This document shows, piece after piece, positions 24,592 through 34,030 of a stretch of 64,000 nt of DNA; positions within the stretch are counted from its first letter, which is position 1, and each line of letters starts with the position of its first letter. Both the position numbers and the translations under genes were made by a program. The notes below the pieces were generated by a model that saw only the letters and a list, made by a program, of their open reading frames with translations, did no database searches and was not told the origin of the DNA. Origin of the DNA: Planctomycetota bacterium (GTDB taxonomy: Bacteria > Planctomycetota > UBA1135 > UBA2386); the NCBI GenBank assembly GCA_965228735.1, contig OZ245838.1, positions 3,040,001 through 3,104,000 on the forward strand, given 5' to 3'.

Positions 24592-24742
24592 CGAGACCTC
24601 CTGTGATCCGAAGTAGCCACGCGGTCCGTTCGCGTCCTCGAATTACCGGTGTACGATCCGTTAAGCACTGCGAATCGACGGCCGCACGTTTCGGGGCGAG
24701 CCGCTACACTGCGGGCCGCTTCTGATGACCCCGGAGATCCTC

Positions 24743-26179
24743 ATGCGAAGTCACCTCCAGCTCTCGGCACCGGCGCTCGCCGGCCTGCTGTTCCTGCCCG
24801 CCACCCTCGCGCAGTCCGCCGACTCCCGATCGAACGGGATCGAACGACCGGAGTTCGCCGCCCCGGTGCGGCTGCAGGCCGGCAAGGAGTTCCTCGGTCA
24901 GGGGCGCCTCTACCCCTCGCCGGTCTATCACGACATGAACGGCGACGGCCGGCTCGACATCGTCGTCGGCGACCTCTGGGGCAAGCTCACGGTAGCGCTG
25001 CGCGAGCCTGGCAGCTCGCCCGCGATCGCCGGCGAGACCAAGCTCAACGGCACCGATGGCGAGGTGCTCGACTTCGCCAACTGGTGATGCATCGGCATGA
25101 GTCCACAGTTCGTGGACTTCAACGCCGACGGCCACCTGGACATCGTCGCGGGCACGTTCTCGGGCTCACCGTGGATCGCGTTCGGCACGAAGGATGGCTT
25201 CGCGCAACCGGGTATGATCCACGACCGGAGCGGCGAGCGCATCGTGCTCAACCAGTTCTGGAACTACGACACCAAGAAGTGGGACTCGACGACGCGCTGC
25301 AATCCTGCCGGCGAGGAACTCGGCAACGGCCACGGCACGTCGGCGCTCGCGTTCGATCACGACGGTGACGGCGACTTCGACCTGTTGCTCGGCGACTACG
25401 ACACGGGTCACCTGTTCCTGCGCCGCAACGAGGGCAGCAACGCCGAGCCGAAGTTCGCGACGCACAACGAGCTCGTCCGGGCCGGCGGCGAGCCGATCAA
25501 CGTCGGCAAGATGGCGACGATGCGCGCGCTCGACTGGAACGGTGACGGCCACCAGGATCTCCTGATCGGCAGCTTCGGCGACAGCTACGGCCCCGGCACG
25601 GGCGGCGGCGTCTGGCTGTTCCCCGGCGCGACCCGCGCGGACAACGGCGACGCGCAGTTCGGCGCGCCCGTGACCTTCGTCGACCCGAGCAAGAAGGACG
25701 GCAGCGGCCCCGCGCGCCCGGACACCGGGCTCTACGCCGACGCGGCCGATCACGACGGCGACGGCGACCTCGATCTGATCGTCGGCGGCTACGCGATGTG
25801 GCAGCCGAAGAAGCCCACGCTCGGGCCCGACGAGGAGCGCGAGCTGGAAGGGCTGCGGAAGGACCACGAGGAAGCTCTCGCGCGCAATCGCGAGCTCAAC
25901 CTGGCGTTCTACGCGGCGCTCGAGGAGGTCCCCGAAGCCGACAAGGCGGCGATGCGCGCGAAGCTCATCAAGGCTCAGAAGGACCAGCGCGCCGAGGTGT
26001 CGCAGAAGCTCTCGAAGATCAACGAGCGCCTGACGGAGCTCGACCCCGGCATGCAGCGGCAGGCCTTCGTGTGGCTCTACGAGAACCTCGCGGTGAGCAC
26101 GCCCGCCACGCCTGGCCCCGATGGCCAAGAACAGGGTGGCGAGCAGGGACAGGGCGGCGAGCAGGGCGGAGTGCGCTGA
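24743..26179 (+). CDS. Secreted FG-GAP/VCBS beta-propeller protein, candidate selenoprotein (in-frame UGA at 25085-25087, U115-C116; 478 aa)
   Basis: GGAG RBS and signal peptide; repeats DMNGDGRLD, DFNADGHLD, DHDGDGDFD, DWNGDGHQD and DHDGDGDLD lie on both sides of an in-frame TGA; SECIS-like hairpin follows. Confidence 0.75.
25098..25121 (+). promoter_or_regulatory. Candidate bacterial SECIS hairpin
   Basis: UGAGUCCAC [AGUUC] GUGGACU(U)CA: 9-bp stem with one bulged U and a 5-nt loop with G at position 2. There are 19 nt between the UGA and the loop. Confidence 0.65.
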
Positions 26180-26181
26180 TC

Positions 26182-27561
26182 GTGCACCGCGCCGCCCTCC
26201 CCCTGCTGGCTGCCGCGATCGGCGGACTCGACGCGACCGCGCAGAACCCCGTCGATCGCAAGGCGCAGGAGCGCTTCCAGAAGGCCGAGAAGGCGGTCGC
26301 GGACAGCAAGTTCAGCGCGGCGCACAAGCTCTACCGGCAGCTCGCGCGCAAGTATCCCAACACCGCGTGGGGCAAGATCGCCGCGCTGCGCACCGAGCCG
26401 ACGGCGTTCCTCGGCTACGCCGATCTGCTGCGGCATGGTGAGCCGACCAATCGCGTGGACGTCGTCGTCATGGGCGACGGCTACGCGCTCGACGACCAGA
26501 ACGAGTTCGAGGACGTCGCGAAGTCGGTCGTCGACGTGTTCCGCCGCGAGAACGTGCTCGGCGAGTACTACGCGTATCACAACTTCGTGCGGGTCCACCT
26601 GACGAGCAAGGACCAGGGCGTCTCGGGGTTCGGCCGCAAGAAGGAGACCGCGCTCGGCGGCAAGATCGCCGGCAAGGTGCAGGGCCAGGTCGGGGTCGAC
26701 ATCCGCAAGACCAAGAAGTGGCTCGACCAGCTCGCCCACCACGACGGTTACGCGATCGCGATCGTCAAGGCGGGCTCGAGCGGCACGGGCGGCGGCGGCA
26801 TCGCGGCCGTCGGCGGCCGCGCGGACGGGACGCTCGTGCACGAATGGGGTCACGCGTTCGGCGGGCTGAGCGACGAGTATTCGACGTTCACCGGCCACCG
26901 CGGCTCGCCGCGCAACACGGTCAACGTCAGCACCACCGACGACCTCGCCAAGGTGCCGTGGAAACACTTCGTCGAAGCGAAGTATCCCGGCGTCGGCGCC
27001 TACCGCGGCGCGGACGGCCGCATCAAGGGCGCCTACAAGCCGACGTCCGGGCAGTGCCGCATGGGCAGCGCCAACGACTTCTGCCCCGTCTGCCGCGAAC
27101 GGATAGTGCTGCAGATCTACCGCCGCGTCGATCCGATCGACGCACACGAGCCGCGCACCGAGCACGACAAGAACCGTGCGACGATGATTCGCCGCGAGAC
27201 GAAGTTCGAGGTCACGGTGCTCGAACCGAAGTCGCATCGCCTCGATGTCACGTTCCACGTGATCCCGGAGCAGGCGGCCATCCGCCCGCGCAACGACGAG
27301 CGACTCGAAGACCGCCAGCGGCGCGGCAAGCTCGCGGACATCCGCGAGACGGTGCAGAAGACGAACGGCAAGTTCGGCGGCCGCGGCCGCTACTCGATCA
27401 CGATCGGGCCGCGCGAGCTGCCGCCGGGGCGCTTCCAGATCGTCTGCCGCGTGCGCGATGACAGCAAACCGAGCGGTGAGTCGCGACCGTGGGTGCTGCG
27501 GGACGACCGCGACCTGCTCGCGAGCGAGCGGGTGTGGTGGGTCGAGATTCCGGAGCGGTAG
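26182..27561 (+). CDS. Secreted M64 (IgA peptidase-like) metallopeptidase
   Basis: NRVDVVVMGDGY, HEWGHAFGGLSDEY and CRM...FCPVC motifs; starts 2 nt after the upstream stop. Confidence 0.85.
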   Translation: MHRAALPLLAAAIGGLDATAQNPVDRKAQERFQKAEKAVADSKFSAAHKLYRQLARKYPNTAWGKIAALRTEPTAFLGYADLLRHGEPTNRVDVVVMGDGYALDDQNEFEDVAKSVVDVFRRENVLGEYYAYHNFVRVHLTSKDQGVSGFGRKKETALGGKIAGKVQGQVGVDIRKTKKWLDQLAHHDGYAIAIVKAGSSGTGGGGIAAVGGRADGTLVHEWGHAFGGLSDEYSTFTGHRGSPRNTVNVSTTDDLAKVPWKHFVEAKYPGVGAYRGADGRIKGAYKPTSGQCRMGSANDFCPVCRERIVLQIYRRVDPIDAHEPRTEHDKNRATMIRRETKFEVTVLEPKSHRLDVTFHVIPEQAAIRPRNDERLEDRQRRGKLADIRETVQKTNGKFGGRGRYSITIGPRELPPGRFQIVCRVRDDSKPSGESRPWVLRDDRDLLASERVWWVEIPER

Positions 27562-28783: not shown

Positions 28784-30003
28784 CGCCCCTTCTTCACGCG
28801 CCACACGACTTCGGTCGCCTCGCCTTCGACGACGTCGACCCACTCGGTCGGCTCCGAGTAGCCGTCCGTGCCACGCAGGTAGATCCGGTTCCTGCCTGCG
28901 GGCGCGCGGATGCGGAACGTGCCGTCCTTCTGCACGGGCACGCATTCGCACGAGCCACCGCTGCCGCGCGCCGGGCCGTACATCGCGACGTCCGTGTACC
29001 ACTTCGTCGGGATCGGCTTGCCGGTCGCGGCGTCGACGACCTTGCCGACGATGAATCCGCCCTTCACGAGCTGGACGGTGTGCCCATCGTCGAGTTCGCC
29101 GGGCTCGACCTCGATGCCGGTCACCGCGATGACCGTGAGCCCCTCGACCCGGGCGAAGACCTTGTAGACCTCGGGATTCAGCTCCGTGATCAGAAACCGC
29201 CCGTTCGCGTCCGTCACCGCGCGGCCGAGCCCCGCGCCCCGACCCGTGGCCGTGACGTGCACGTCGGGTGCCGGGTTGCCGTCCGGCAGGAGGACCACGC
29301 CGGCGATGCGCCCGCCGGCCGGGAGCGTGCCGAGGACGGGTTCGCTCGGATCCTCGACGTCGATCCACGTGCGCGCGTGATGCTCACCGCCGGCGATCAG
29401 CTTGATCGGTTGCAGATCGGGAACGCCGCGCAGCGTGAAGTTGCCCTTGTCGTCGGTCCACGCGACCCACGGCGGCAGCGGGCCCGTGAGCCAGACCGCG
29501 TACTTCGGCCCCAGGATCGACGGCCAGACGCGGGCCCCCGCGATTGGCACGTCGGTGTCGCGATCGCGCAGCTGACCGCGCAGCTCGATGCCCGGCGCGA
29601 GCGCGACCTTCAGCTTGCCGGGGTCGAACGCCTCACCGCGATACTGGCGCAACCCGACGAGGTCACCGCAGCGCGCGAGCAACACGACCCTGTGGGAGCC
29701 CCAGTCGTAGGCCCGAAACCACGGCACCTCGTCGAACGCGAACGTGCCGTCGGCCGCCGTCACCGTCTCCGCGATGGGCAGCACCTGCCCGCGCTTGCCG
29801 TCGTCGTGCACCAGCGTCACGCGCGCGGTCTTGCCGGCGGGCACGCCCTCGATCCGACCGCGAACGTCGACCGTGATGCGTTGCCCGTCGGCACCCTTCG
29901 TCGGCGCCGCGTTCTGTGGCAGGCTGTGCTGAGCGAACAGCGCCGCGCCGGCGGCCAGGATGGCCGCGACGAGACGCGCGACCGATCCCGGCGCGAGTGT
30001 CAT
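28780..30003 (-). CDS. Secreted carboxypeptidase-regulatory-like repeat protein, paralog 1
   Basis: ATG 30003 (ATGA overlap); LRGQLRDRDTDVPIAGARV and TDANGRF motifs; colinear with 27572-28783. Confidence 0.75.
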   Translation of the reverse strand: MTLAPGSVARLVAAILAAGAALFAQHSLPQNAAPTKGADGQRITVDVRGRIEGVPAGKTARVTLVHDDGKRGQVLPIAETVTAADGTFAFDEVPWFRAYDWGSHRVVLLARCGDLVGLRQYRGEAFDPGKLKVALAPGIELRGQLRDRDTDVPIAGARVWPSILGPKYAVWLTGPLPPWVAWTDDKGNFTLRGVPDLQPIKLIAGGEHHARTWIDVEDPSEPVLGTLPAGGRIAGVVLLPDGNPAPDVHVTATGRGAGLGRAVTDANGRFLITELNPEVYKVFARVEGLTVIAVTGIEVEPGELDDGHTVQLVKGGFIVGKVVDAATGKPIPTKWYTDVAMYGPARGSGGSCECVPVQKDGTFRIRAPAGRNRIYLRGTDGYSEPTEWVDVVEGEATEVVWRVKKGR

Positions 30004-31502
30004 CGGTTGCGAGTGTACCAGGCGACGCCGTGCAGCGGGCGCTGCAGCGCCTTGTCGAGGAGGCCGTCGCACTCGACCTCGTAGACCCGGCAGGCCTCGA
30101 GCCCGTCGACCTCGAGGTCGAGCGTCCGGCCGTCTGGCATCACACCGACGCCCGAGATCGCGTGCTCGCGCGTATCGCGCGGCGGGCAGCCGTAGCTCTG
30201 ATGATGATCGTAGGTCCAGCTGCTGACGCTGAACGACGGCGGCAACGCGGACGCGACGTTGATCGGCGCGGTCATGCGCAGGCGGAACCCCTGGTCGGTT
30301 CGCGTGACCCGCTCGATCTCGAACGGCACCTTGCCGCGCCAACGCAGCTGCTGCAGGCCGTGCGTGCGGTTGCCGAGCGAGCCCCAGCCGCGGTTGCTCA
30401 GGCCGCACCACAAAGCCCCCGTCCTGGACCACAGCACGCGCGTGATGCCGCACTTCAGCCCGTGCCGGAACGGATAGCACGCGCCCTGGTAGCGGCCGTC
30501 GACCTTCTCGAGGGTCATGCGGAACACCTCGGAGCTGTATTGGTCACCGCAGAAGATCTGGCCCGCGAACGGCCCGAAGTTGCCTGCGGTATCCCAGACG
30601 AACCCGGCCGGCGAACGGCCGCACTTGTCGTACGGGATCCAGACGGCAGGCAGGCGGAAGTTGGGAATCGTGGCAACGGCCTCGGCCATGCGGATCCCGC
30701 TCTTCACCTCGCCGGGGTGGTCGACGAGGCTTTGCTCGAGCTTGCACGACTCGATGCCGTGCGGGTGCCCGTGGAAATCCCCGGTCTCGAGCAACGCGAA
30801 CTTGCTCGTCGCACACCACTCGCCCTGGTTGTCCGTGTACCAGATCTCGCCGCTGGGCGACGTGCCGACGCCCGCGGGCGATCGCAGGCCCGCGCAGCGC
30901 GGTTCGAACGTGCCGCCCTCGGGCGGGATCCGCACGGCCCAGCCGCGCCAGTCGGCCTTGCCGAACGGCTCGCTACCGAACGGCTTGTTGAGCGTCAGCC
31001 AGAGTCCGCCGTCGGGCCCGAGCGTCGGGCCGAAGCAGTACTCGTGGTAGTTGCCGGACAGCGGCCACCCCTGCGCGTGCGTCTCGAGCAGGTCCATGCG
31101 ACCGTCGCCGTTGGTGTCGGCCATGCGGGACAACTCACCGCGTTGACCGCACCAGAGCCAGCCGTCGTGGTCGAGCAGACCGAGCGGTTCCTGCAGACCC
31201 TGCGCCCACAGCGTCCACTTCGGACTCTGCCCGAGCGGATCGGTCGCGTGCCAGATCTCGCCGCGCCGCGTGCCGACGTAGATCTCGATGCTGCCGTCCG
31301 GGCGCGTGCGTTCGACGATGCCGCCGGCCTCGAGCACGACGTGCTCCGGAACTTCGACGTCGACGATCTCGATGAAGTCGTCCTCGGTCGGCTCGGCGGC
31401 CTTCGTCACGGGGCCGGGCGATGCGGGCTCCTGCGCGACACTCGCAGCGGCGAGCAGCAGAACAGCGAGCAGAGCCGGGATCGAGTGCGAGAACCTCACC
31501 AT
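30000..31502 (-). CDS. Secreted glucose/sorbosone-dehydrogenase-like beta-propeller protein
   Basis: Signal peptide; GTRRGEIW, GNYHEY, GLRSPAG, YTDNQGEW and FGPFAGQIF motifs. Confidence 0.7.
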   Translation of the reverse strand: MVRFSHSIPALLAVLLLAAASVAQEPASPGPVTKAAEPTEDDFIEIVDVEVPEHVVLEAGGIVERTRPDGSIEIYVGTRRGEIWHATDPLGQSPKWTLWAQGLQEPLGLLDHDGWLWCGQRGELSRMADTNGDGRMDLLETHAQGWPLSGNYHEYCFGPTLGPDGGLWLTLNKPFGSEPFGKADWRGWAVRIPPEGGTFEPRCAGLRSPAGVGTSPSGEIWYTDNQGEWCATSKFALLETGDFHGHPHGIESCKLEQSLVDHPGEVKSGIRMAEAVATIPNFRLPAVWIPYDKCGRSPAGFVWDTAGNFGPFAGQIFCGDQYSSEVFRMTLEKVDGRYQGACYPFRHGLKCGITRVLWSRTGALWCGLSNRGWGSLGNRTHGLQQLRWRGKVPFEIERVTRTDQGFRLRMTAPINVASALPPSFSVSSWTYDHHQSYGCPPRDTREHAISGVGVMPDGRTLDLEVDGLEACRVYEVECDGLLDKALQRPLHGVAWYTRNR

Positions 31503-34030
31503 TGGTAGACCACCTCGACCTGCTGGCCGGCCGTCAGTTGCGAACGCGCCGGCGCGGGCCGACCGTCGACGAGCAGCGTCACGCCCGCGTTCTTCGTCCA
31601 AACGATGTCCATCGCGCCCTTGCGACAGCGGATCGTGCGCACGATCTCGCTGCCGCCGGCGACGAGCCGCGCGCGCGCCGTGTCGTCGTACGCGCAGCTG
31701 TCGTCCGCCGCCTCGACCATGAACGTCGGGAAACCGTCGTCCGTCACGCGGTGCCCGGCGACCATGCGATCGCCGGCGGCGAGCGCGAAGTCCTCGAGCA
31801 CGATCCACTCGTCCTGCGGCCCGAGCGGCTTCAGCAGCTTGCCCGCGCGACCGTGCCACGTGCCCGTCGCGTCGAGGAAGTCGCCGCGCCAGAGCCACAC
31901 GAGTCGGCCGCTCTCGACGTCGAACGCGTAGTGCGTGCGCTGCGCGGTCCCGACGGCGATGCACCGCGCGGAGACGCCGTCGAGGAACGCGCCGTGGAAC
32001 GTCGGCCGCCCGCTCGGCAACAGCACGAGCGAGCCCGCGGCCGGCACGAGACCCGCCGGCGTCGGCGCCGCGGCACCGAGCGACAGCCACGTGCGCAGCG
32101 CATCGATCTCGGCGAGATCCGCCGCGCGCTTCAAAGGCCAGAACGACGGCATGCGCGTGCCCGGCCGCAGCGTCGGCGCGTTCAGCAGCCAGTTCCGGAA
32201 CCAGGCGGGCCGCACCCGCTCGTGCTGGATCGACAGATCCATGCCCTGCGGCCCGAGCGAGGGCGCGCCGGCGAACGTGTGACACTGCACGCAGTTCTTG
32301 CCTTCGAGACCCGCGAGCGCGTGCCCGCGCTCGGCGTTCGCAACGGAGAACGTCGGCTCGTCGTCGACGACGCCCGGCGCATCCACCTCGCCGAACAGCT
32401 CCGCGTACCTCCCCGCGCGATCGGCGGCGACCTTCGGCATCCGGATCGACAGATAGGGCCGCACGCGGTGTCCCTCCGTCAACACACGCTCGATCCACTT
32501 CGCCCGCAACCGCGCGCCGACCTGGCTCAGATCCGGCGGGATGCGACCCTCTTCGCCGAGGTCCTCGCGCTCTTGCAGATGCTTCGTCACCGCCGGCGCG
32601 AGGCCGCCGCGACCGTCGCGCACGTGGCACGACAGGCAGCCGTCCTGCAGCAGCATGAGCTCGAGCTGCGCCTTGCCGTCGAGCGGCTGCGCGAGGCTCA
32701 CCGTCGCGGCACCGTGCAGCGCCTTGGCCGCGGGCGTCGTCGGACACGCCCGGCCGAGCCGCAGCTCGTTCCAGGCTGGCGCCGCCTTCGCCGCCGGCAT
32801 CGCCGCGAGCTGGTCGTCCGCGATCTCGTGGCACGCCACGCACTGCCTCGCGTGCGCTGCGGCGCGCCCGCGCGCCACCGCGGCGGCCGCCGGAAAAGCC
32901 GCGCGCGGCGGCGGCACGAGCGCCATCGCCCGCGCCTCGGCGCGCGCGGCCGGCAGGATCTGCTCCTCGACGCCAGGACCGGACCACCACACGTCGAGCT
33001 GCTTGCCGCCACCGGCCTGCGTGAACACGACCTCGAGATCGTGCGGTCCGGCCGCGAGCTCGACCGAGCCGCTCTGCTTCTCGTAGGGATGGTTACCGCT
33101 GTTGGTCACGACGCGCTTGCCGTCGATCCACAGCCACGAACCGTCATCGCTCCCCGTCGTGAACTTCCACTTGCCCGCCGCCGGGACGTCGAGGCTGGCG
33201 CGGAACCGGAGCGCGAAGTTGTTGCCGCGGGTCGCCGGCTTCACGTCGATCACGTCGACGACGCCGGCCGCCGCGACCTCGACACCCTCGAGATCCGGCA
33301 CCTTGCCGTTGGTCTTCATCTCGAAGCACTCGAAGCCGAACCCCGGCACGTCCGCGCCGTCATCGTTGGCGTCGCGCACCTGCACCTGCAGCATCCAGGC
33401 CGCGAGCGCGCTCGCCTCCTTCTTGCCGAGACCGAAGTCGTGCGGGACACCGGGCCGACGCGCGCCGGGCTCGAGCAGGAACGCCATGACGTGCGCATGG
33501 TCGGTGCGCGTCGCGAGCTTCTTCAGTGCGTCGGGCGCGTGGCATGCGCCGCACGCGCGCTGGTGAAACAGCTCCTCACCGAGCCGGATCGTGCCCTCGC
33601 TCGTCGCCGCCGGCTGCAGCTCGACGTCGCCGCCGAGGTCGAGCAGCCACGCCGCGAGGTCGCCGGCATCGTCACCACCGTGGTGCGAACGCAGGAACGC
33701 GGCAGCACCGTCGCGCACGTGCCACGCGGATGCATCGACGAGCGCCGGACCGGCGAGCGGCGCGGTCCGCGCAGCGAGCGGCTTCGGGACCGCGTGGCAG
33801 CGCACGCAGCCCGCTCGCCGCACCGCCAGCTCACCGCTGAGCGCCTCGCGACCTTGCGGATCCTGCGACTGCCCGAGTGACTCCGGCGGCGAAGCGAGTG
33901 GCGAAGCGACCGGCGTCGCGACCGACCCGACACCGAACCCGGCGTAGGCGACCGACGACGGTTCGCCGTTGGATCCGGTCCCGCATGCAGCGAGAAGCGC
34001 GAGGGTGGCCGAGAGGGGTAGCCGAGGCAT
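31496..34030 (-). CDS. Lipoprotein, pentaheme c-type cytochrome with PA14 domain
   Basis: LAAC lipobox; CVRCH, CGACH, CVACH, CLSCH and CVQCH; PA14 motif GSDDGSWLWIDG; TRMPSFW. Confidence 0.8.
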   Translation of the reverse strand: MPRLPLSATLALLAACGTGSNGEPSSVAYAGFGVGSVATPVASPLASPPESLGQSQDPQGREALSGELAVRRAGCVRCHAVPKPLAARTAPLAGPALVDASAWHVRDGAAAFLRSHHGGDDAGDLAAWLLDLGGDVELQPAATSEGTIRLGEELFHQRACGACHAPDALKKLATRTDHAHVMAFLLEPGARRPGVPHDFGLGKKEASALAAWMLQVQVRDANDDGADVPGFGFECFEMKTNGKVPDLEGVEVAAAGVVDVIDVKPATRGNNFALRFRASLDVPAAGKWKFTTGSDDGSWLWIDGKRVVTNSGNHPYEKQSGSVELAAGPHDLEVVFTQAGGGKQLDVWWSGPGVEEQILPAARAEARAMALVPPPRAAFPAAAAVARGRAAAHARQCVACHEIADDQLAAMPAAKAAPAWNELRLGRACPTTPAAKALHGAATVSLAQPLDGKAQLELMLLQDGCLSCHVRDGRGGLAPAVTKHLQEREDLGEEGRIPPDLSQVGARLRAKWIERVLTEGHRVRPYLSIRMPKVAADRAGRYAELFGEVDAPGVVDDEPTFSVANAERGHALAGLEGKNCVQCHTFAGAPSLGPQGMDLSIQHERVRPAWFRNWLLNAPTLRPGTRMPSFWPLKRAADLAEIDALRTWLSLGAAAPTPAGLVPAAGSLVLLPSGRPTFHGAFLDGVSARCIAVGTAQRTHYAFDVESGRLVWLWRGDFLDATGTWHGRAGKLLKPLGPQDEWIVLEDFALAAGDRMVAGHRVTDDGFPTFMVEAADDSCAYDDTARARLVAGGSEIVRTIRCRKGAMDIVWTKNAGVTLLVDGRPAPARSQLTAGQQVEVVYQW

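Follow-up and report, generated by a model that had tools for sequence, protein, structure and literature searches.

A predicted exported FG-GAP beta-propeller gene of Planctomycetota with an in-frame UGA, representing a putative selenoprotein family

The locus and its interrupted reading frame

The window analysed here is a stretch of 64,000 nucleotides (nt) from a Planctomycetota genome (assembly GCA_965228735.1, contig OZ245838.1, positions 3,040,001 to 3,104,000 of the forward strand), in which two open reading frames (ORFs, 24725-25087 and 25097-26179) share one frame and are joined by TGG TGA TGC ATC GGC ATG (25082-25099). The original prediction, made from the letters of the window, proposed that the two are halves of a single secreted FG-GAP/VCBS beta-propeller selenoprotein; judged from comparative sequence evidence, the in-frame UGA is very probably decoded as selenocysteine (Sec, U) and the two ORFs are one gene. 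Read through from the ATG at 24743, the frame specifies the 478 residues that had been proposed, with an adjacent U115-C116 pair, and terminates at a TGA (26177-26179). The description of the two parts also holds: the first has a ribosome-binding site, the GGAG listed in Table 1 (the 3' end of the 16S rRNA of the source genome carries CACCTCCTT, the basis for the Shine-Dalgarno match), and no GGAG precedes the internal ATG at 25097; of the five DxNxDGxxD repeats, the first precedes the TGA and four follow it, the second part opening at the next repeat.

The TGA of codon 115, for which verification had been proposed, is no assembly error: it is covered without difference in contigs from four runs of four studies. 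Of the four, X4 and X5 carry a flag as possible sources of the window DNA, X2 is also identical, and X9 comes from a different strain, which retains the TGA but differs elsewhere by 13 substitutions and an 18-nt deletion.

Comparison of 72 distinct UGA-containing members of the family indicates that the second half does not occur as an independent gene. A hydrophobic, signal-like 10-mer is found upstream of U in 68/72 members, and within the 40 residues after U in 0/72; an ATG occurs within 10 codons after the UGA in only 32/72, with a Shine-Dalgarno-like word in none of these 32. All of the 120 best database matches are signal-less C-terminal fragments starting at MSPQ, because gene callers split the gene at the UGA, as had been anticipated. 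No sigma-70 promoter or downstream terminator pattern was found at the locus.

Table 1. Features of the propeller gene and its downstream neighbour (window coordinates)
Feature	Position	Strand	Basis or remark
One 478-codon gene containing an in-frame TGA; predicted to encode an exported selenoprotein with a five-bladed FG-GAP beta-propeller	24743..26179	+	Pfam PF13517/PF01839, AlphaFold model
Shine-Dalgarno-like GGAG	24733..24736	+	6 nt before ATG 24743; sequence
Predicted signal peptide (residues 1-23; last residues ...TLA, followed by Q)	24743..24811	+	sequence
In-frame TGA, codon 115, predicted selenocysteine	25085..25087	+	conservation; full-length homologues have Cys here
Cys116, predicted resolving cysteine of vicinal U-C pair	25088..25090	+	Cys in 99% of 111 aligned members
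Full predicted hairpin including weaker lower stem	25089..25132	+	folding; lower stem less conserved
Upper stem-loop TCCAC-AGTTC-GTGGA	25102..25116	+	19-nt spacer between UGA and loop; second loop nucleotide is G
Five DxD/NxDGxxD loops (D64, D125, D205, D264, D336), one per blade; predicted Ca sites	24932..25776	+	motif, model
Helical hairpin within blade 5 (about residues 362-433), variable and missing from some members	25826..26041	+	DSSP of model, translations
Exported peptidase M64-family gene, 3 nt after stop	26182..27561	+	downstream neighbour, not part of family signature

Conservation of the UGA codon, the downstream hairpin and the Sec machinery

Alignment of the UGA position, which had been proposed as a check, gives TGA in 35 of the 36 loci matched at E<=1e-10 (the window gene, three duplicates and 31 distinct close homologues, all of which keep the codon); the 36th locus encodes a generic FG-GAP protein, 27% identical, with Gly at the site. 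In 123 genes the site is TGA and never TAA or TAG, and the true stops of the 72 distinct UGA members vary (TGA 38, TAG 30, TAA 3, one cut by a contig end). The residue after the UGA is Cys in all 72, a set that was chosen on TGA-Cys; the only other stop in the matched regions is a TAG in a broken copy. Repeat residues aside, no positions are better conserved than U and C (99% each across 111 aligned rows). Conservation of the TGA is far beyond chance. Two family paralogues in the source genome, both of other subfamilies, have F-TGA-C (L067, G000:C1:406817, - strand, F-U-C-T-S-S) and T-TGA-C (L087, G000:C1:5872224, - strand, T-U-C-L-S-F) at the same site. The codon before the UGA ends in T, against usage, in 24/26 non-Trp members of the first set, a pattern that not all later loci follow.

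Family matches occur in 50 of 61 related genomes, of which 60 have selA, and in 114 of 401 genomes sampled across the phylum. Among 150 matches listed from these 401 genomes, 147 contain one TGA (the site itself being read out for 33 of the loci behind this count), and the other three have C-C (G363 and G360) or G-Y (G420). The selA gene is present in 111/114 family-bearing genomes versus 188/287 of the others, although kinship makes these genomes non-independent samples. G360 (C-C) and G420 (G-Y), which are both near-complete, have neither a selA nor a selB match, and the third family genome lacking selA (G119) has the UGA form together with selB, so that the UGA form is confined to genomes with Sec machinery. 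A profile search (E<=1e-15) did not find the family in two other phyla, each sampled by 251 genomes, in sets that were centred on an Acidobacteriota and a Bacteroidota record and had no positive control.

Cys-containing homologues, which the original prediction took as a further check, exist as full-length proteins. The junction is C-C in 16 of the 17 best representative proteins that span it, the remaining one having W-S (P0200); many long generic FG-GAP proteins also filled that search, and the count is restricted to rows that span the junction. A second search yielded 36 full-length junction matches, comprising 22 C-C, 12 C-x with Cys at the Sec position only, one G-Y and one gap; the one-Cys variants have thus lost the position of Cys116, and Cys at the Sec position is kept in 12/14 non-CC cases. 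Of 29 parsed rows from metagenome loci, 20 have U-C, 8 have C-C and one is misparsed, and 11 of 40 such loci lack a clearly covered junction. Cys forms named from other groups exist (P0480), and a cluster look-up of 10 Cys forms returned no names. On a tree computed with FastTree without the codons of the U-C pair and the hairpin, 5-6 switches between U-C and C-C are required; the tree is unrooted and does not show their direction.

A selenocysteine insertion sequence (SECIS) adjacent to the 3' side of the UGA had been implied and not shown; a suitable hairpin is found there. The region 25085-25135 folds at -21.6 kcal/mol (z -3.8, 0/200 shuffles as good). With its 5-nt loop AGUUC, stem of 5-6 bp and 19-nt spacer, the hairpin fits the limits given for bacterial SECIS elements (bSECIS) in the available part of PMC13188914 (loop of 3-9 nt, stem of 4-16 bp, G at loop position 1-2, spacer of 16-37 nt, minimum free energy <= -7.5); Rfam has no model for it. 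The strongest test is the natural control offered by the Cys forms: the 5-bp stem is complete in 114/123 UGA genes versus 0/10 Cys-codon genes, which indicates, on sequence grounds, that the hairpin is under selection only in company with the UGA. Codon choice in the stem runs against usage, Pro121 being CCA in 72% of members versus a background of 7%, Val124 being GTG in 98% versus 84% at the best other four-fold site, and T standing at +15 in 119/123 UGA genes across Ser, Gly, Thr, Cys and Asp codons. Pro CCA is paired with Val GTG in 43 cases and Pro CCG with Ala GCG in 12. In an alignment of 67 distinct hairpin sequences 96.8% of cells are paired and 15 are compensatory (0/500 shuffles as high; consensus energy -8.35).

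The source genome (7.19 Mb, 69% G+C) encodes the complete Sec machinery for which a check had been suggested: selA, selB and selD score 454, 337 and 367 bits, each above its cut-off, and tRNA-Sec, the selC product (RF01852), reaches 76.6 bits where the cut-off is 47. The selA and selD genes are intact and adjacent, and selD has an in-frame TGA of its own. TGA is the main stop of the source genome (680 of 1032 long coding-like frames), and therefore the genetic code is standard. Sec decoding is in heavy use, an in-frame TGA being present in 10 of 23 AhpC/TSA matches, in UxxC-, TxxU- or CxxU-like contexts, and these ten AhpC/TSA-fold genes having similar downstream hairpins.

A rough scan of the source genome gives 49 in-frame TGA sites in coding-like context near Cys; about half resemble real redox or metal-binding motifs, and for this reason the selenoproteome is probably large. 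The source genome has three paralogues with the C-x-U motif G-H-P-L-G-C-T-U-(G/N)-N-G (G000:C1:3484699, + strand; 4855623 and 7087946, - strand). A DsbD-like hub (G000:C1:4263499, - strand), comprising two DsbD_N domains, a membrane domain and a thioredoxin domain with an F-N-U-G-S-C end, is probably a selenoprotein itself, to judge from its sequence. Another candidate exported selenoprotein, outside the window (G000:C1:5150736, + strand), combines a D-W-L-U-M-C motif (U-x-C) and a strong hairpin with a DsbD_N-like domain at the C-terminus, and matched no catalogued selenoprotein family in this analysis; in P0292, a propeller plus DsbD_N is fused to a domain cut at the same 'LDWL' motif.

None of the findings that the original prediction named as refuting it turned up in these comparisons. 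Two readings would dispense with Sec, and both are very improbable. If the TGA were a true stop, the locus would hold two translationally coupled genes, with a propeller made of two chains, or else a pseudogene; the in-frame ATG three codons after the TGA, the calling of the second part as a gene in 120/120 best matches and the prevalence of TGA among the stops of the source genome would be in keeping with this, but the site is invariably TGA in genes whose real stops vary, and the second halves lack an ATG in 40/72 members, a Shine-Dalgarno word in the remaining 32/32 and a signal segment in 72/72. Full-length Cys forms, in which the hairpin decays, and the tracking of selA by the family also contradict a true stop. 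If instead the UGA were read as Cys or Trp through a variant code or a suppressor tRNA, the Cys found at the site in homologues and the W-S of P0200 would be accommodated, but TGA ends most long genes of the source genome, this gene included, the only UCA tRNA found is tRNA-Sec, and selA and selD are intact side by side.

Some observations nevertheless weigh against Sec insertion across the family. One member (L118) has neither residue of the pair, having G-Y; two fetched UGA copies are broken shortly after U, namely L066 and one in L074, the latter 38 codons after U in a genome (G035; L068-L075, L047) that has at least 15 UGA copies, some of them tandem. The hairpin loop is without the optional N1-N2 pair of the bSECIS model (available part of PMC13188914). 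Mapped on the tree, compensatory stem change amounts to about four pairs in the same direction, none opposite and three unchanged (sign test p 0.125), and therefore covariation alone is not significant after relatedness.

Predicted fold and possible function

Pfam matches of the read-through protein are to FG-GAP repeats only (PF13517/PF01839), with DxDxDG loops present. AlphaFold, run on the read-through with Cys for Sec and 24 sequences, gives a model (predicted local distance difference test, pLDDT, 94.6; predicted template modelling score 0.90) of five blades, the fifth of which bears a helical hairpin, closed by a C-terminal strand. Its best fold matches are five-bladed glycoside hydrolases (GH) of families GH62 and GH43 (Z 17.9, root-mean-square deviation 3.6, 270 aligned, about 11% identity), and Foldseek and sequence profiles return CRTAC1, integrins, ITFG2 and PVL lectin; a fold search with the model of a fused member found nothing further. 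The repeat loops are predicted from their motif to bind Ca. The U-C pair precedes the first strand of blade 2 by six residues. It would lie in the loop that leads into this blade, on the other side of the propeller from the Ca loops, and share that face with a Trp-rich hairpin and the helical hairpin. Pocket residues other than U-C, at the same register in other blades, differ between subfamilies.

The original prediction considered U115-C116 to be a vicinal redox or metal-binding site; from domain fusions in relatives we infer that the redox half of this guess is the likelier. One member (L113) ends in a DsbD N-terminal domain (E 4e-12), and PF11412 (DsbD_N) is present in 50/120 matches to this member, a query that had the domain itself. 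The Cys pair of DsbD_N is kept in 45 of these 50 fusions by a strict pattern and aligns, weakly, with that of E. coli DsbD-alpha (1l6p, E 0.019), the domain that reduces periplasmic substrates according to the available part of PMC3322552. DsbD_N is fused in a second subfamily too (P0421, P0431); P0511 has an N-terminal WCGPC thioredoxin domain; and P0277 combines the propeller with DsbD_N and an AhpC/TlpA-like domain that reads W-U-G-P-C in a 94%-identical metagenome copy. In G360, which lacks selA, the C-C gene is followed directly by a DsbD_N lipoprotein gene. The DsbD_N gene adjoining L162 was found by tblastn after being missed by a simple gene caller. Complex prediction for the two halves of the fusion P0327 scored 0.59 versus 0.00 for the best control, a weak result (runs 0.75/0.22/0.59; contacts agree at >=57%, partner pLDDT >=81), and halves of one fused gene tend to pass; the mark set for this score is reached by 116/157 solved complexes and 2/215 mismatches, of which 18/157 and both mismatches lie at <=0.60. 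In P0264, a C-C propeller stands behind Ser/Thr kinase and FGE-sulfatase domains.

Because DsbD_N or thioredoxin domains are fused to relatives, and the Cys retained in one-Cys variants is that at the Sec position, the protein is read here, with somewhat more confidence than doubt, as a thiol/selenol reductase of the cell envelope in which Sec attacks, Cys resolves and a DsbD chain supplies electrons. SelB bound to the hairpin would insert Sec at the UGA; in the exported propeller the selenolate of Sec115 would attack an oxidised substrate held on the U-C face, for which the best guess is a disulfide or sulfenic acid formed by cysteines of envelope proteins, and peroxide the second choice; and Cys116 would resolve the adduct as a vicinal Se-S ring. 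Re-reduction would proceed from cytoplasmic thioredoxin to the membrane domain of DsbD, to its thioredoxin domain, and then to DsbD_N or a TlpA-like thioredoxin. About as likely as not is the wider proposal that the propeller is the terminal enzyme of a DsbD-fed reductive branch in the planctomycete envelope with Sec at several steps (hub, TlpA-like carriers and propeller), in subfamilies with different pockets, hidden by gene callers.

Several points weigh against a reductase. The DsbD_N count is inflated by the choice of query and comes mainly from one subfamily; the gene's own N-W-U-C-I-G-M subfamily has no fusion among the 120 best database matches. Clustering of 402 predicted ORFs from 48 neighbouring regions revealed nothing shared beyond close kin, and among 138 selected neighbours outside the window, the 70 that were scanned with Pfam have unrelated functions and include no thioredoxin or DsbD, one of them being a pyridine nucleotide-disulfide oxidoreductase. 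The face assigned to U-C is taken from general propeller topology rather than from model coordinates, and the variable pocket residues may fit a binding protein as well as an enzyme.

Such a binding protein, in which the Se-S ring would be a permanent structural or ligand-contact element of an exported lectin- or adhesin-like propeller, is fairly unlikely. It would agree with the Foldseek matches to CRTAC1, integrins and PVL-type lectins, with the lead of five-bladed glycoside hydrolases by fold (Z 17.9), with the ability of vicinal disulfides to stack on sugar rings (available part of PMC12102755), and with pocket residues that vary by subfamily, the abundance of copies in G035 and the lack of a redox fusion in the query subfamily. 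DsbD_N fusions in two subfamilies and thioredoxin-domain fusions in two architectures are not what a static ring would predict, and one-Cys variants cannot form a ring, yet they mostly retain Cys at the Sec position. To our knowledge, the use of Sec for a static contact would also be unusual. That the U-C pair, kept reduced by the DsbD chain, serves in cell-surface binding of soft metals and metalloids (Hg, Cu, As) is quite unlikely. Adjacent C-U or U-C pairs do occur in MerB-like SaoL, HgcA, MbdU and CopZ-family selenoproteins (PMC13188914, Table 1), 57% of members have a His at the corresponding place on the top face of blade 1, and such binding would need the same reductant links; but that His is Tyr or Phe in the subfamily of the window gene, no metal-resistance or transport neighbourhood is conserved, and a 450-residue scaffold with variable arms would exceed the need of a chelator.

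As for the neighbouring genes, the order with the downstream M64 peptidase gene is kept only in two close relatives (G001 and G018). Elsewhere in the window (30003-34030, - strand), a multihaem cytochrome c/PA14 gene and a neighbour with DUF7133 (PVC-type, haem-associated) are syntenic in close relatives.

The family would add a large group to the known selenoproteins, being present in more than a quarter of the sampled phylum genomes (114/401) and in at least 15 copies in one of the genomes found to carry it. Among the 150 listed phylum matches Sec forms outnumber Cys forms (147 UGA, two Cys-Cys and one Gly-Tyr), the reverse of the usual pattern, in which Cys forms outnumber Sec forms (available part of PMC13188914). 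Recognition of the UGA also corrects a systematic annotation error, evident in all 120 best database relatives. If the reductase reading is true, a repeat fold usually read as an adhesin or lectin is a scaffold for a thiol oxidoreductase, and a role of selenium outside the cytoplasm in Planctomycetota becomes testable; Sec machinery is not needed to express the versions that naturally have Cys-Cys or a fused DsbD_N.

Comparison with known systems

The recoding mechanism is ordinary, and the propeller family is missing from the selenoprotein catalogues that were checked. Like the bacterial SelB/bSECIS selenoprotein genes described in the available part of PMC13188914, the gene has an in-frame UGA, a 5-nt G-containing loop 19 nt downstream, selA, selB, selC and selD in its genome, and Cys homologues; the fold differs, none of the 119 families in Table 1 of that 2026 catalogue being an FG-GAP/VCBS repeat or propeller protein. 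NCBIfam 20.0 likewise has no model over cut-off for the propeller proteins, in agreement with the initial impression that the fold is not a characterised selenoprotein family. The terms VCBS, FG-GAP and propeller are absent from the text of PMC13188914 and PMC13745706, from the text and four supplements of PMC12013277, and from the text and part of a supplement of PMC13326102; FG-GAP and VCBS are absent from the text of PMC4807772, whose candidate table S9 lay outside the search. More generally, no selenoprotein of FG-GAP, VCBS or beta-propeller type was found in the openly readable literature, a scope that excludes BSepDB itself and bioRxiv supplements.

With respect to fold, the FG-GAP propellers of the integrin alpha head, CRTAC1, ITFG2 and PVL lectin share the FG-GAP repeats with DxDxDG loops. 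Integrin and PVL propellers have seven blades, whereas the protein described here has five repeats and five predicted blades, a TM-score of at most 0.41 to them, a U-C loop and a helical hairpin. The overall fold resembles that of the five-bladed glycoside hydrolases GH62, GH43 and GH32, but according to the alignment the invariant acids lie in Ca-type loops, with none at the pocket-side register. PQQ (pyrroloquinoline quinone) methanol dehydrogenase is an exported eight-bladed beta-propeller with a PQQ cofactor and a Cys-Cys vicinal disulfide at its central site; it was not matched in fold, Foldseek or sequence-profile searches with the propeller protein.

A vicinal Sec/Cys pair is shared with the CopZ-family GxUC proteins, SaoL, SaoC, HgcA, MbdU and KCU-star (PMC13188914, Table 1), which have unrelated domains, whereas the propeller gene has its pair in a predicted exported-propeller loop, with Sec first. 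The nearest functional parallel under the reductase reading would be the DsbD/ScsB periplasmic pathway (DsbC, DsbG, CcmG and TlpA-PprX), which is alike in export, predicted here, and in a conserved redox pair. Its substrates in the available part of PMC3322552 are thioredoxin-like proteins or peroxiredoxins with Cys, in contrast to a propeller with Sec and without a thioredoxin fold. The N-terminal domain of DsbD hands electrons to these substrates (PMC3322552, available part), the same domain is fused to relatives of the propeller, and the source genome possesses a DsbD-like hub.

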